Assembly (NCBI GenBank): GCA_047947115.1
Contig: CP170459.1
Location: 4,736,001-4,800,000, forward strand
Length of the DNA stretch: 64,000 bases
Origin: Verrucomicrobiota bacterium
Lineage (GTDB): Bacteria > Verrucomicrobiota > Verrucomicrobiia > Limisphaerales > AAA164-E04
Direction: 5' to 3'
How positions within the stretch are numbered: position 1 is the first letter of the stretch; each line of letters begins with the position of its first letter. Below are positions 58,939 through 64,000 of this stretch, piece by piece. The notes under the pieces are model-generated. The model did not search any database, was not told where the DNA came from, and worked only from the letters and a program-made list of their open reading frames with translations. A program made the position numbers and the translations under genes.

Positions 58939-59597
58939 ATGTTGGCAAAAATTGATGCGGCTTCGGTTCGTGGAATCGAAGCATTTAAAGTAGAAGTGGA
59001 AGTCCACGTCGGTTACAGCGACTCCTGTGTCGTGATCGTCGGACTTCCGGACGCCGCCGTGCGCGAATCTCGCGACCGGGTCGGATCAGCCATGTCGAAC
59101 AGCGGATACCGCTTTCCTCAAGGTCGCACCACCATCAACCTCGCACCGGCCGACCTAAAAAAAGAAGGTCCCAGCTTTGATCTCCCCATCGCAATGGGCA
59201 TCCTTGCCGCAAGCGAGCAGATGGAACCCTGTTTACTGACCCGCTACATGCTCGTGGGGGAACTGGCACTGACGGGTGCCGTTCGACCGGTAAAGGGTAT
59301 TCTGCCCATCGCTCTCCGGGCCAAAGCCGAAGGCAAACGTGGCATCATCGTGCCAAGCGAAAACGCCCACGAAGCGGCCGTGGTCCAGGGCATTGAAGTC
59401 ATCCCCGTTCAAAACCTGCGCGAAGCGGTTCATTTTTTGGAGGAAGAAGTACCCATATCCCCGTGTCGAGTGGATCTCGATTCGCTTCTGGGCAAAACCA
59501 TCGATCCCGCATTGGATTTCAGCGATGTCAAAGGCCAGGAATCCGTCAAACGAGCGCTGGAAATCGCCGCAGCCGGCGGACACAACGTATTGTTATT
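58939..59597 (+). pseudogene. comM: 5' part of comM/YifB (Mg-chelatase-like AAA+ ATPase), interrupted by an insertion
   Basis: VGLPDAAVRESRDRV, INLAPADLKKEGPSFDLPIA, DVKGQESVKRALEIAAAGGHNVLL; the expected GPPGxGK Walker A is replaced by unrelated sequence with a stop at 59641-59643. Confidence 0.92.
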
Positions 59598-59635: not shown

Positions 59636-61291
59636 ATGCCTAAAGCTTACTCATATATCAGATTTTCTTCCCCCGAACAACACCGTGGCGATTCCTTGAG
59701 AAGACAACGTGCTGCTGCGGAAAATTACATTTCTGAACACCCTGAGTTAAAGCTTCATCTGGACGAGGATGTCTCAATGCTAGATTCCGGAATTAGTGCT
59801 TACAATCAGGACAATGTGTCAAAAGGAGCACTTGGCCGGTTTATGGACACTATGAGAGAGGGTAAAATAGAAAAAGGATCTTATCTACTGATTGAATCCC
59901 TAGATAGAATGAGTCGAGCGGAACCTTACAAAAGTGCACTGCTGCTCTTAGAAATAGTAAAGGCAGGTATCAAAGTTGTCACCTTGTTCGATGAAAAGAT
60001 TTACTCTGAGAATACATTGAATTTCGATAATTTGATCCTTGCCATCTGCACATTCAAAAGAGCTCATGATGAGTCTGAAACAAAATCCAAAAGAATCAAA
60101 TCCGTATGGTCAAGGAAACGCGGTTATGATTCGGTAATTACGAAACGATGTCCTCATTGGTTGGAATTCGACGAAAACGAGGGAGCTTTTAAACCTATTC
60201 CTGAAAGGGTCGAGTTGTTGGAAACGATTTTTCAAAGATTCTGCAGTGGTGAGGGCAAAGACAAAATTGCACGAAGTCTGAATAAAGCTGGAGAATCGCC
60301 ATGGGGAAGAGGAAAAGGGTGGCATGCTTCTTACATTCAAAAGATAATTCGTAACAGATCGGTTATAGGAGAATTTCAACCTCATGAATTATTTGATGGA
60401 AAAAGGATTCCTGTTGGTGAAATTAAATCAGGATATTATCCGGCAGTCATTTCCTCTCAACTATTTGAAAAAGCACAACAGCGCTTAAGTTCCTCCAAGC
60501 ATCAGAAAGGAAAACGTTCAGAAAATTTTACAAATCTATTCTCGGGTTTGGTTTACAGCGGCTTGACAGGATCATCAGTGATCTATGTTTCAAAGGGATC
60601 TAAAAAAACACAGAAATACTTGGTCTCCAGTGACGCAAAATCAGGCCTTGGTGAAAAATATGTCAGTTGGAGATATGATGCTTTTGAAATCTCGTTCTTA
60701 ACTAGCCTCCGCGAGTTGGATTTAAACTCCCTGCTCCCACCTCTTGAGCAAGCTGATAATAAATCTACGGAAGAAATAGCCAAAATTAACCAGAATCTTG
60801 CCTGTATTGAGAAAAGTCTAAAAAATATCCAAGATGGAATTGAGCGCGGCTCCAAAAAAGTCACAACACTCGTAAACCGAATGGCTGAACTGGAAGAAGA
60901 ACGAGCAATAATTTTAGAGAATCTGCAAGTTTTGCAAGATGAAATCGAAACACAAAATGCCATAAAAGCGACAGTAACAAATGCATCAATAGACATTAAA
61001 AGCCTAATCGAAGACCGTTTCAAGCCGGATATTCGCAAAAAACTATATGTTGAAATCCATAATTTAGTTGGAAAAATCGAGATTTTTTTTGAAAACAGCC
61101 CTTTTACAGCATCGGACGGCCTTGCATCGGAACATCCAGATCTACCACAACTTATTGCTGGAAGGTGTTTTGTGATTCATTTCAAATCCTTTAATTACTC
61201 CAAAGCCTGTTTTCCATCAAAAAAGGACCCAGCAATAGTACCAGTAATAATTGATGATTTGCGAGTTTCTGAAAAATTAAGAGCAGAATAA
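59636..61291 (+). CDS. Large serine recombinase (integrase)
   Basis: AYSYIRFSS (catalytic Ser), DSLRRQ, IESLDRMSR, ESETKSKR; recombinase domain IARSLNKAG..WHASYIQKII..YYPAVIS; C-terminal coiled coil. Confidence 0.95.
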   Translation: MPKAYSYIRFSSPEQHRGDSLRRQRAAAENYISEHPELKLHLDEDVSMLDSGISAYNQDNVSKGALGRFMDTMREGKIEKGSYLLIESLDRMSRAEPYKSALLLLEIVKAGIKVVTLFDEKIYSENTLNFDNLILAICTFKRAHDESETKSKRIKSVWSRKRGYDSVITKRCPHWLEFDENEGAFKPIPERVELLETIFQRFCSGEGKDKIARSLNKAGESPWGRGKGWHASYIQKIIRNRSVIGEFQPHELFDGKRIPVGEIKSGYYPAVISSQLFEKAQQRLSSSKHQKGKRSENFTNLFSGLVYSGLTGSSVIYVSKGSKKTQKYLVSSDAKSGLGEKYVSWRYDAFEISFLTSLRELDLNSLLPPLEQADNKSTEEIAKINQNLACIEKSLKNIQDGIERGSKKVTTLVNRMAELEEERAIILENLQVLQDEIETQNAIKATVTNASIDIKSLIEDRFKPDIRKKLYVEIHNLVGKIEIFFENSPFTASDGLASEHPDLPQLIAGRCFVIHFKSFNYSKACFPSKKDPAIVPVIIDDLRVSEKLRAE

Positions 61292-61373: not shown

Positions 61374-62054
61374 ATGGAATCCTTCGTAGCCTATTATCGA
61401 GTCAGCACACAAAGACAAGGGCAAAGCGGACTTGGTCTGGAAGCACAACAATCAGCAGTATCCCAATACATCAATGCAACCGGCGGAAAACTGGTAGAGG
61501 CATACCAAGAAATTGAATCGGGCCGCAACAATGATCGCCCAAAATTAAGAGATGCATTGCTCACCGCAAAAGCCAATAAGGCAAAAGTAGTTATTGCAAA
61601 ACTAGATCGTTTAGGGCGTCGAGCATCTTACATTCTGCGCCTAATTGACGAATCCGGTGTGGACTTCCATATTTGTGATATGCCCGATGCTGACAAATTG
61701 ACAATAACTATATTAGCTGCTGTAGCGGAGCGAGAAGCATCTGATATTTCAAAGCGAACAAAAGTAGCTTTAGCTGCAAAAAAAGCACGCGGAGCAAAAC
61801 TTGGAAACCCCAGACTTGAAGAAGCGAGGGCAAAAGCGTTGAAGAGCAACAAGATCATAAACACCGAACGCCAACAGAGATACAAAACAATCATTTCAGA
61901 AATCATCACTAAAGGAAGAGTCACAACACATAAGGAGATTGCTGAATGTTTGAATGCACGCGGAATCTCTACTGCAAGGGGTGGTAGATGGCATACAACA
62001 TCGGTCAGGAGACTAATCCCCTTTCCTGTTGAAACGTTTGCGGAATCTTTATGA
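61374..62054 (+). CDS. Short serine recombinase (resolvase catalytic domain + short recombinase-type DNA-binding tail)
   Basis: FVAYYRVST, SGLGLEAQ, IAKLDRLGR, ISKRTKVAL, GAKLGNP, IAECLNARGISTARGGRWHTTSVRRL. Confidence 0.93.
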   Translation: MESFVAYYRVSTQRQGQSGLGLEAQQSAVSQYINATGGKLVEAYQEIESGRNNDRPKLRDALLTAKANKAKVVIAKLDRLGRRASYILRLIDESGVDFHICDMPDADKLTITILAAVAEREASDISKRTKVALAAKKARGAKLGNPRLEEARAKALKSNKIINTERQQRYKTIISEIITKGRVTTHKEIAECLNARGISTARGGRWHTTSVRRLIPFPVETFAESL

Positions 62055-62339
62055 TATTTATGACTACGCACTTCTTCATCTTGAAATCCAACCCGCGCAA
62101 AATTGGGACACAGCGATCCACGAATACTTCACGACCATTACAAAGCACTGGTATCACATAAAGAACTTGAACAGTTTTGGATGTTAGATCCAAATTCAAT
62201 TCTCTGATTCTGCTTTCCGCACTTGTTCAAGACATTCAGAAAAATTTTTGAAAGATTGTGTTTACTTGGTCGATATCTCAAAAGAAATGGGTTTGATCAA
62301 ATTAATTAGTCATTATATGCGAAACTGGAGATTCAGTAT

Positions 62340-62445
62340 AAAAAAAGCCGCCCCAGCGGGACGGCAAGAGGATACCACTTGGGATACCCTACGTAATCGA
62401 AATACTTTGTTGTGAAAAGCATTTCAAGGGATAGCTTGATACACT
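62340..62445 (-). ncRNA. Putative tracrRNA
   Basis: Minus strand reads anti-repeat-like AGTGTATCAAGCTATCCCTTGAAATGCTTTTCACAAC, then AAA, nexus-like GTA-TTTCGAT-TAC-GT, hairpin AGGGTATC/GGTATCCT, and terminator GCCGTCCC/GGGGCGGC + T7; immediately upstream of cas9. Confidence 0.75.
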
Positions 62446-62451
62446 GGAGAC

Positions 62452-62480
62452 ACTCTATACATAATTGGAAAGAACGTCAA
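62452..62480 (-). promoter_or_regulatory. Candidate sigma-70 promoter for the tracrRNA
   Basis: TTGACG (62480-62475)-17 nt-TAGAGT (62457-62452); predicted +1 near 62445, at the anti-repeat boundary. Confidence 0.6.
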
Positions 62481-62486
62481 TAACAT

Positions 62487-64000
62487 ATGCAAAATAAAAT
62501 CTTAGGTTTAGATTTAGGTACAACATCTGTTGGCTGGGCTCTGATTCAAACGGGTGATGATGATGGAAAGATTCTCGGTGGAGGAGTACGGATTTTTCAA
62601 GGTGTCACAGAAGAGAAAACAGGGGCATTAAAAAACCAAAAACGGCGCGAAAAACGCGCCCAAAGGCGTAATATCCAAAGAAGGAGCAGGAGAAAAACTG
62701 CGCTTAAAAAAGCACTTACTGTTGCAGGTCTGTTGCCAAATGACGTGCTTGATCCGCATAAAGCTCCAAAAGTTTTAAACCAAATCCATCCTGACCCTTA
62801 TCTTCTCCGATCAAAAGCCCTTTCCACTAAACTTTCAGATTACGAATTGGGGCGTGCCATTTTAAACCTTGGCATGCGCAGGGGCTTTTTAAGCAATCGT
62901 AAAGCAGGAAATGATACGGACAGCAAACATGTCCAGCCGGCCATCGATAAACTGACTCAAGAGATAGAAGACACAGGATGCGCCTCCTTGGGGGATTACC
63001 TTGCGAATCAGCCAACAAAGAGAGGCAGGTATACCCATAGATCAATGTTTGAAAAAGAACTGAATTCCATCTGGGCGGCTCAAAGTCAGCACAACCCAAA
63101 GTTAACTTCTGAATTAAAATCAAAAATTGAACATTACCTGCTATTTCAAAATCCATTAAAAATTCAAAAATTTTTGGTAGGACAATGTGCTCTAGAGACA
63201 AGCAAGAAACGAGCGGCAAAGTGGCAGCCTATAGCGCAACGCTTCAGGATTTGGCAAGACGTCAGCCGAATTAGATTTACTCATACTGGGATGCCACTCG
63301 ATTGGGCTCAACAAAAGAAGCTGGTAGATGCATTGGAAAGTAAACCTAAGCTGTCATGGAAAGCTGTTAGAAAATTAATTGAATTGCCAGATGACACCAA
63401 ATTTAACCTAGAGGAAAGTGGAGCACTCAAGGAACTCAAAGGTAACGACACTAACGTCAAACTAACCAAAGCCCTTTCAAATTTCAACGAATCGCTTTCC
63501 CCTGAGAAGAAATCTAAAATTCTCGATTGGCTCGATACATCAGATACTGATGAATTTTTAATAAGGAAATTGAAAAAAGGTTTTAATTTCGATGAAAAAA
63601 CAATAACTGCCCTGACCAAGTGCAAATTGGCTTCAGGATACCTCCACCTGAGCGTGAAGGCCTGCAACAAAATAGTTGATGCATTTGAAACGTCCAAATT
63701 ACCTCTCAGCTACAGGGAGGCGGCGGAAAAAGCCGGTTATAACCTGAACGAGTTGAAAGATAGCGAAAATTTTCCTAATCGCCTGCCACTGCCGCCTAAA
63801 CTTAGAAATCCTACGGTCGAGAAGACTCTCTCCGAAACGCGCAAGGTCGTAAATGCAATCATTCGAAAATTTGGCAAACCAGATAGAATTCATCTAGAAA
63901 TTGCTCGGGACTTAAAAAATCCTAAGCGGGTTCGAGAAGAAATTCACAAACACAACAGGGAACAGGAAAAACTTCGTGAAAACGCCAAAAAAGTCCTTGA
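62487..64000 (+). CDS. cas9: CRISPR-associated endonuclease Cas9, type II-C-like (first 504 codons; runs off the window, so absent from the ORF track)
   Basis: Manual translation without stops: MQNKILGLDLGTTSVGWA (RuvC-I, D9), GVRIF, Arg-rich bridge helix NQKRREKRAQRRNIQRRSRRK, DPYLLRSKAL, RRGFLSNRK, FQNPLK, GQCALE, RNPTVEKTLSETRKVVNAIIRKFGKPDRIHLEIARDL (RuvC-II, E471). Confidence 0.96.
   Translation, partial: MQNKILGLDLGTTSVGWALIQTGDDDGKILGGGVRIFQGVTEEKTGALKNQKRREKRAQRRNIQRRSRRKTALKKALTVAGLLPNDVLDPHKAPKVLNQIHPDPYLLRSKALSTKLSDYELGRAILNLGMRRGFLSNRKAGNDTDSKHVQPAIDKLTQEIEDTGCASLGDYLANQPTKRGRYTHRSMFEKELNSIWAAQSQHNPKLTSELKSKIEHYLLFQNPLKIQKFLVGQCALETSKKRAAKWQPIAQRFRIWQDVSRIRFTHTGMPLDWAQQKKLVDALESKPKLSWKAVRKLIELPDDTKFNLEESGALKELKGNDTNVKLTKALSNFNESLSPEKKSKILDWLDTSDTDEFLIRKLKKGFNFDEKTITALTKCKLASGYLHLSVKACNKIVDAFETSKLPLSYREAAEKAGYNLNELKDSENFPNRLPLPPKLRNPTVEKTLSETRKVVNAIIRKFGKPDRIHLEIARDLKNPKRVREEIHKHNREQEKLRENAKKVL

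Follow-up and report, generated by a model that had tools for sequence, protein, structure and literature searches.

Does the short intergenic segment beside a cas9 gene in a Verrucomicrobiota bacterium encode the RNA partner of that Cas9, and with which repeats would it pair? The segment lies near the end of a 64,000-nt stretch of the host contig CP170459.1 (C1; positions 4,736,001 to 4,800,000 of the forward strand), which we refer to as the window and which breaks off within cas9. An earlier note, made from the letters of the window alone, had described a tracrRNA-like gene on the minus strand here and had predicted the repeat of a CRISPR array lying outside the window. We conclude, with a probability of roughly 0.93, that 62445-62340 on the minus strand is the tracrRNA gene of a complete type II-C CRISPR-Cas9 system. 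By analogy with the Neisseria-type model, a sigma-70 promoter would give rise to a 106-nt RNA ending at its own terminator, and the array would be transcribed against the direction of the cas genes, probably starting at an extended -10 box at the repeat ends. Pairing of crRNA repeat and anti-repeat would produce a 34-bp duplex for trimming by host RNase III (for which the host genome has one gene); with its nexus and 3' hairpins free, the RNA would load onto the 995-aa Cas9, which would then cut spacer-matching DNA. The free RNA is predicted to be closed as a hairpin between anti-repeat and nexus, which pairing with the crRNA would open.

Elements of the probable tracrRNA gene

Inspection of the sequence placed all elements of a tracrRNA-like gene on the minus strand between 62480 and 62340 (Table 1). 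The promoter of the earlier description was found exactly where it had been read, yet its agreement with the consensus is within chance in shuffles and weak alone, with 4 promoter-like sites in 600 nt against 1.9 ± 1.4 in shuffled sequence. Transcription from it would start about 6 nt past the -10 box, at 62445, where the anti-repeat begins. The anti-repeat of about 37 nt, the 8-bp hairpin and the terminator with U7 were each located on the same strand. The G+C-rich terminator stem belongs to the sole terminator in 600 nt (0.3 ± 0.6 in shuffles), and the predicted RNA ends in the 3' stem-loops and intrinsic terminator that characterize type II tracrRNAs. The proposal of a nexus-like mini-stem is refined: the stem is predicted in the co-fold with the crRNA and disappears from the predicted free RNA, where its pair probability is about 0.002. 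Rfam covariance models returned no family at the gathering score for the tracrRNA segment; tracrRNA sequences are described as highly divergent in the excerpted text of PMC6546382.

The anti-repeat is intergenic, with the cas9 reading frame starting 42 nt from its first base. The candidate cas9 promoter, the best consensus match in the region, overlaps the putative tracrRNA promoter back to back, and its -35 box sits in anti-repeat DNA. This DNA also retains the extended -10 motif of the repeat, facing cas9 (62437-62445, plus strand). Because the -35 box and the extended -10 motif both lie within anti-repeat DNA, repeat-derived DNA may double as the cas9 promoter.

Table 1. Features of the CRISPR-Cas9 locus and the island boundary, in window coordinates; positions above 64000 are window-equivalent
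Feature	Position	Strand	Basis or remark
Left junction core TTGTT	59590..59594	+	right core at 99837-99841
Large serine recombinase, 551 aa, likely island integrase	59636..61291	+	PF00239, PF07508
Small resolvase-type serine recombinase	61374..62054	+	PF00239
Predicted tracrRNA, 106 nt	62340..62445	-	co-fold with array repeat
Intrinsic terminator-like 8-bp stem and U7	62340..62365	-	stem 62365-62347, U7 62346-62340
Stem-loop, 8 bp	62369..62390	-	fold
Nexus-like stem, 3 bp, A-rich junction before it	62393..62405	-	co-fold structure
Alternative 12-bp hairpin, putative latch	62397..62427	-	62427-62416 predicted to pair with 62408-62397
Anti-repeat, 37 nt	62409..62445	-	nt 1-18 identical to repeat; 6 differences, all further 3'
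Candidate cas9 promoter, TTGATA-18 nt-CATAAT	62436..62465	+	10/12 consensus, putative
Sigma-70-like tracrRNA promoter, TTGACG-17 nt-TAGAGT	62452..62480	-	9/12 consensus, putative; TTGACG 62480-62475, TAGAGT 62457-62452
cas9, 995 aa	62487..64000 (5' half), ends 65474	+	TIGR01865, 635 bits against cut-off 100
cas1	65455-66336	+	TIGR03639 (II/NMENI model), 279 against cut-off 120
cas2	66321-66665	+	TIGR01573, above curated cut-off
Array, 9 repeats of 36 nt, 8 spacers	66713-67278 (C1:4802713-4803278)	crRNA sense -	exact copies

Predicted pairing with the array repeats

A genome search with the 37-mer, which the earlier note had proposed as a check, led to an array of nine identical repeats 2.7 kb beyond the window. 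The expectation of repeats of about 36 nt with a GTTGT start was borne out, the repeat being 36 nt long and beginning GTTGTG on the minus strand, and the anticipated resemblance to 62409-62445 holds in 31 of 37 aligned columns (84% identity), so that the repeat is no exact copy. Across the 6.08-Mb genome, blastn with the repeat gave a single match of E < 0.1 beyond the array itself, and this match is the anti-repeat. The segment has a defining feature of type II tracrRNAs, complementarity to a cognate repeat from a place outside both the array and coding DNA. An orphan Cas9-RNA pair is refuted by the matching array, about 4.3 kb from the tracrRNA gene.

The suggested co-fold of repeat and anti-repeat paired 34 of 36 repeat bases at -55.2 kcal/mol, through 31 Watson-Crick and 3 G-U pairs, with 2 U-U mismatches and 1 bulged A. 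Duplex energies for 5000 random 106-nt windows of the genome averaged -22.3 (sd 3.3), the best being -38.6. In the co-fold the lower stem reaches the first repeat base and is followed by an A/AA junction, with the nexus 1-3 nt further on. The excerpted text of PMC6546382 likewise places the nexus 1-3 nt past the hybrid, behind an A/AA junction, and gives a median II-C hybrid energy of -39.4; the first lower-stem pair is G-C here, whereas the majority form in that text is G-U. In the opposite orientation the duplex reaches -42.6 against -55.2 and the 3' hairpins -17.0 against -23.5 on the minus strand, the weaker values arising because the G-U pairs form on the minus strand only. Duplex and hairpin energies favour the minus strand, so that transcription of tracrRNA and crRNA most likely runs against that of the cas genes.

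The cas genes and their array

The start of cas1 overlaps the end of cas9, that of cas2 overlaps the end of cas1, and the array begins 47 nt past cas2, too close for csn2 or cas4 to fit between. This cas9-cas1-cas2-array order, free of csn2 and cas4, is that of type II-C, and the assignment made in the earlier note is thereby upheld. The 995-aa Cas9 falls within the 900-1100 aa expected of a II-C protein and retains intact RuvC and HNH catalytic residues (D9, E471, H559, N582, H691 and D694). We also considered type II-D (Cas9d) and rejected it, as the protein scored 146 bits with NF049971, below the cut-off of 375. The II-C systems of Neisseria meningitidis and Campylobacter jejuni have the same three-gene operon, anti-repeat pairing and -10-like box ending the repeat; compared with the Neisseria system, the Cas9 here is 995 aa long with a divergent PAM-reading end, and the locus lies on an island in comM.

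Nine relatives of this Cas9 (P0002-P0010), one of them (P0005) labelled Verrucomicrobia bacterium by NCBI, are 991-999 aa long and 56-63% identical over their full length, with catalytic columns invariant in all nine. Identity falls to at most 43% beyond this clade. We sought cas9 loci of the clade in genome and viral collections and found none, the only match being a distant locus, L013 (35%). The L013 cas9 gene contains a perfect 30-nt triple repeat (L013:9127-9217), and the array of that locus, with 53 repeats (L013:11585-16872), has apparently duplicated spacers. The best PDB matches were 8ja0, 6kc8, 6jdq and 6jdv, with chains of 1082-1092 aa and E values from 6e-74 to 1e-72; these are chains of Nme1Cas9. 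For 6JDV this identity is given in 10.64898/2026.08.17.745178. The PDB match spans residues 3-741 only, and the PAM-reading end is therefore divergent. The locus supplies the full RNA pair for the 995-aa Cas9 of a ten-member clade that is without a close solved relative. Separately, within 3.5 kb of four plasmid cas9 genes (L060, L062, L064 and L065), neither cas1 nor cas2 was annotated and a full array was not detected.

The eight spacers of the array are 30-31 nt long. Each of the nine repeats ends TGATACACT in the crRNA sense, which fits TGnTAnnnT, the consensus of an extended -10 element, and marks the repeat end as a candidate promoter. Promoters inside repeats, together with cas9-cas1-cas2, are attributed to II-C systems of Neisseria and Campylobacter in the excerpt of PMC5965381. 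Protospacers were absent from the host genome beyond 14-nt chance matches, the whole array matched phages and plasmids only at E = 2-6, and a 20-nt part of one of the eight spacers, the only one scanned there, had no exact match in viral contigs. As no protospacer was found, no PAM was derived. An 18-nt motif common to repeat and anti-repeat had 2 metagenome matches, which we judged to be chance; the parts read held no array.

The host carries a second CRISPR system (L066; C1:4517275-4528067) with host GC, about 40 repeats at a 61-nt period and genes from cas3 through cas2, which by inspection looks like type I-E. Its 39 spacers had no match beyond 16 nt in the island or the genome.

Layout among relatives in the phylum

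We detected a Cas9 match in 82 of the 401 phylum genomes searched. The comparison set comprised 42 loci, namely 38 phylum Cas9 loci, L013, L014, L017 and the present locus, with arrays in 38. L015 and L016, whose contigs end before a full array, are not part of the 42, and removal of L048, which has a truncated repeat, from the 38 left 37 loci. When a G[CT]T-start rule was used to orient the arrays, the crRNA sense ran opposite to cas9 in 36 of these. By eye we judged 22 of the 37 tracrRNAs confident, on the basis of anti-repeat, A-rich junction and terminator, and dropped the remaining 15; the tracrRNA position in the 22 is given by construction, because only the opposite strand near the cas9 start was searched. 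An unrestricted tracrRNA finder was abandoned for its false matches in coding regions, and a second search of 13 further phylum loci yielded at most one credible candidate (L052, p = 0.77). The repeat end is -10-like in 19 of the 22 confident loci, extended in 11 and plain in 8. Since many phylum loci share the same layout, the tracrRNA here is typical of II-C, and as a tracrRNA it is ordinary.

One repeat family (L019, L023-L025, L027-L031, L033, L034 and L036) shows matched letter changes in the repeat, the anti-repeat and the segment that follows, in U/A and C/G forms, and its tracrRNAs show no obvious nexus hairpin of local pairs.

A predicted hairpin between anti-repeat and nexus

Folding of the free 106-nt RNA predicts that nt 19-30 of the anti-repeat pair with nt 38-49 to form a 12-bp hairpin with 2 G-U pairs, hiding the nexus. 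The closed fold has a minimum free energy of -33.2 against -23.5 for the open fold, a difference of 9.7 kcal/mol, with 11.8 expected anti-repeat/nexus pairs, and nt 1-18 are predicted to be unpaired at 82% on average. Binding of the crRNA is predicted still to gain about 40 kcal/mol, and the nexus to form only after this pairing. Of the six positions at which the anti-repeat departs from the repeat, five fall in the hairpin arm and make pairs there.

Unconstrained tests came first and gave this RNA no significance, with a rank of 107 among 972 alternative letter sets and a count of 210 in 3000 shuffles. With a statistic restricted to anti-repeat/nexus pairs, chosen post hoc after those tests, the RNA scored -9.8 kcal/mol against -1.7 for a perfect anti-repeat, and 0 of 150 nexus shuffles did as well. 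Among the 22 confident tracrRNAs, 18 had at least 6 expected anti-repeat/nexus pairs, the real anti-repeat outdid a perfect one in 19, and shuffle p values were below 0.05 in 8, 10 and 9 over three runs. Own pairs exceeded within-group permutations in a 6-member group (320/20000) and a 12-member group (6/20000), values inflated by kinship because no more than 5 repeat groups are represented among the 22 hand-picked loci. Substitution of perfect anti-repeats removed the signal within groups (768/5000 and 1375/5000; all 22, 148/5000). Windows 19-36 and 37-54 nt downstream gave 2/22 and 1/22, and the permutation signal was absent there. The opposite strand was almost as complementary (p < 0.05 in 9/22 against 10/22), the sense strand being the stronger in 15/22. 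Ten plasmid loci from other phyla gave 5 usable cases, one of which shows the complementarity, and L013, L038, L039 and L040 are without the hairpin. Taken together, two lineages and the present locus appear to have a genuine complementarity.

By a slight preference, we favour the explanation that this complementarity is real but neutral, arising where template switching homogenizes near-palindromes or where U-rich drift suits the purine-rich start of the nexus. Template switching at quasi-palindromes takes place during replication, and such an origin agrees with pairs that are mostly Watson-Crick and nearly strand-symmetric over the 22 loci, confined to the adjacent window and patchy between groups. 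It sits less well with the two non-Watson-Crick arm positions here, which both form G-U pairs in the transcribed sense (-9.8, the opposite strand giving -5.4), and with the failure of composition-preserving shuffles and cross-locus swaps to reproduce the pairing. A neutral, palindrome-driven origin fits at least as well as selection for the hairpin.

We hold it doubtful that the hairpin is a selected latch added to the tracrRNA function. Such a latch would hide the nexus and the lower-stem half of the anti-repeat while leaving the first 18 nt open as a toehold; nothing short of a full crRNA repeat would displace it and allow Cas9 to load. The RNA would then enter fewer pairings with stray mRNAs, and Cas9 would stay RNA-free while crRNA is scarce. 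In its favour are the differences from the repeat that create hairpin pairs, which a perfect anti-repeat loses, and the advantage of own pairs over permutations, confined to the adjacent window and abolished within groups by perfect anti-repeats. The excerpt of PMC12477760, moreover, reports that tracrRNA by itself is not enough for a stable NmeCas9 complex and that Cas9 devoid of RNA acts as a sensor of low crRNA; the toxicity of free tracrRNA maps to anti-repeat and nexus in the excerpt of PMC12302355. These two papers offer a reason for which a latch could matter. PMC8224270 reports guides derived from host transcripts. Telling against it are the non-significant unconstrained tests, the sharper statistic having been picked afterwards, and the near-equal complementarity of the opposite strand, which a DNA-level process would also produce. 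The hairpin also recurs in just one of the five usable plasmid loci and is absent in the four loci named above, and the folds are predictions.

It is at best a tentative suggestion that, in a subset of II-C systems, anti-repeat imperfections co-evolve with the nexus as a crRNA-opened switch with an 18-nt toehold. If true, the switch would act at the RNA level as a check on guides derived from mRNA and would give Cas9 a structural means of sensing crRNA abundance, and the present locus, with its 12-bp putative latch and 995-aa Cas9 from an uncharacterised clade, would be a clean test case. The idea could account for the imperfection of anti-repeats and for the inertness of free tracrRNA, and it would also bear on the design of reprogrammed tracrRNAs and single guides. 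Full-text literature searches, with most subscription journals outside their scope, and the excerpted text of PMC6546382 returned no description of this fold, which is not proof of novelty.

The arrangement of the two promoters invites a further comparison. The tracr-L RNA of Streptococcus pyogenes is reportedly a natural single guide; its tracrRNA gene and cas9 point away from each other, and their promoters are tightly spaced. Here it is very improbable that the gene also yields a long RNA of this kind, which would start at a further minus-strand promoter within cas9 (62600-62571) and would repress the cas9 promoter via Cas9. The divergent layout is alike, the divergent promoters overlap and 62600-62571 matches a promoter at 9/12 positions, although a single extra match is within chance. 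The 225-nt form folds no upstream repeat mimic onto the anti-repeat, and no single-guide fold is predicted in it. Nor did 62330-62490 have a match of at least 10 nt near the cas promoter, a query that covers the guide only in part, since the 5' end of the long form lies outside it. Least probable of all is that the locus is dead and the segment a solo repeat, decayed and silent: neither a transcript nor a protospacer was found, but nine identical repeats, three open cas frames, catalytic residues in place, a promoter and terminator in register with the anti-repeat and strand-specific G-U pairs all speak against decay.

Environmental contigs

We found cas9 pieces at 90-100% identity in runs recorded as seawater, salt marsh and estuary. 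One DNA contig (X3), which departs from the locus at 2 positions, spans L001:4276-4426 and with it most of the tracrRNA gene. The tracrRNA gene is left uncovered by all 16 contigs of four RNA-library runs, and such gaps are no evidence against transcription; assembled contigs reveal neither RNA ends nor strand. DNA carry-over is possible in these four runs because intergenic pieces are also present there. Repeat-bearing contigs of the RNA-library runs X12, X18 and X19 carry different spacers, and related arrays therefore vary. A 95-nt RNA-library contig that includes the repeat (X19 record 11; L001:8913-8973) has a depth of 76 against 2-4 for cas9 pieces, which is a hint only, because contig depth cannot rank expression. 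Another RNA-library contig covers most of a short open stretch between the resolvase gene and the tracrRNA gene (62070-62207, plus strand), which we take to resemble the C-terminal end of a tyrosine integrase (LGH...Y).

The island in comM

The locus lies on a 40.2-kb island that splits comM, with the 5' half of the gene in the window and the 3' half at C1:4835834-4836685. At 59.6 kb the GC content drops from about 52% to 42.5%. The core TTGTT is common to both junctions, 40,247 bp apart, and excision of the island in silico restores the Walker A motif of comM in frame; at the predicted circle junction, short inverted arms flank the core. Contigs of the DNA runs X2 and X6 pass from the island's left boundary, at the same base, into the 3' half of comM, and an empty site therefore exists in related cells. 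A split target, a core shared by both ends, a likely integrase gene at one end and an empty site together mark the island as a site-specific integrative element. It also carries type I restriction-modification genes, and the CRISPR-Cas9 system is likely defence cargo of this serine-recombinase element beside them. Cas9 was found in none of the 21 same-family genomes searched (52-95% complete); among 400 further genomes from the same order, 3 yielded it (E ≤ 1e-40).

The comM gene is a known landing site of defence-carrying elements in Acinetobacter, as described in the excerpt of PMC11472951, and the element here likewise inserts into comM with defence cargo. Unlike an AbaR/Tn7-like element, it has a large serine recombinase, a TTGTT core and inverted arms at the predicted circle junction.

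Other cargo of the island (C1:4804918-4835451; L001, L009 and L010) includes a staphylococcal-nuclease homologue and several large surface-type proteins, one of 1046 aa with Ig domains and others of 1932 and 1168 aa. A 543-aa reading frame at the right end of the island had no PADLOC match and may encode a replication protein. By inspection, the cargo also includes one ankyrin-like protein and one leucine-rich-repeat-like protein.
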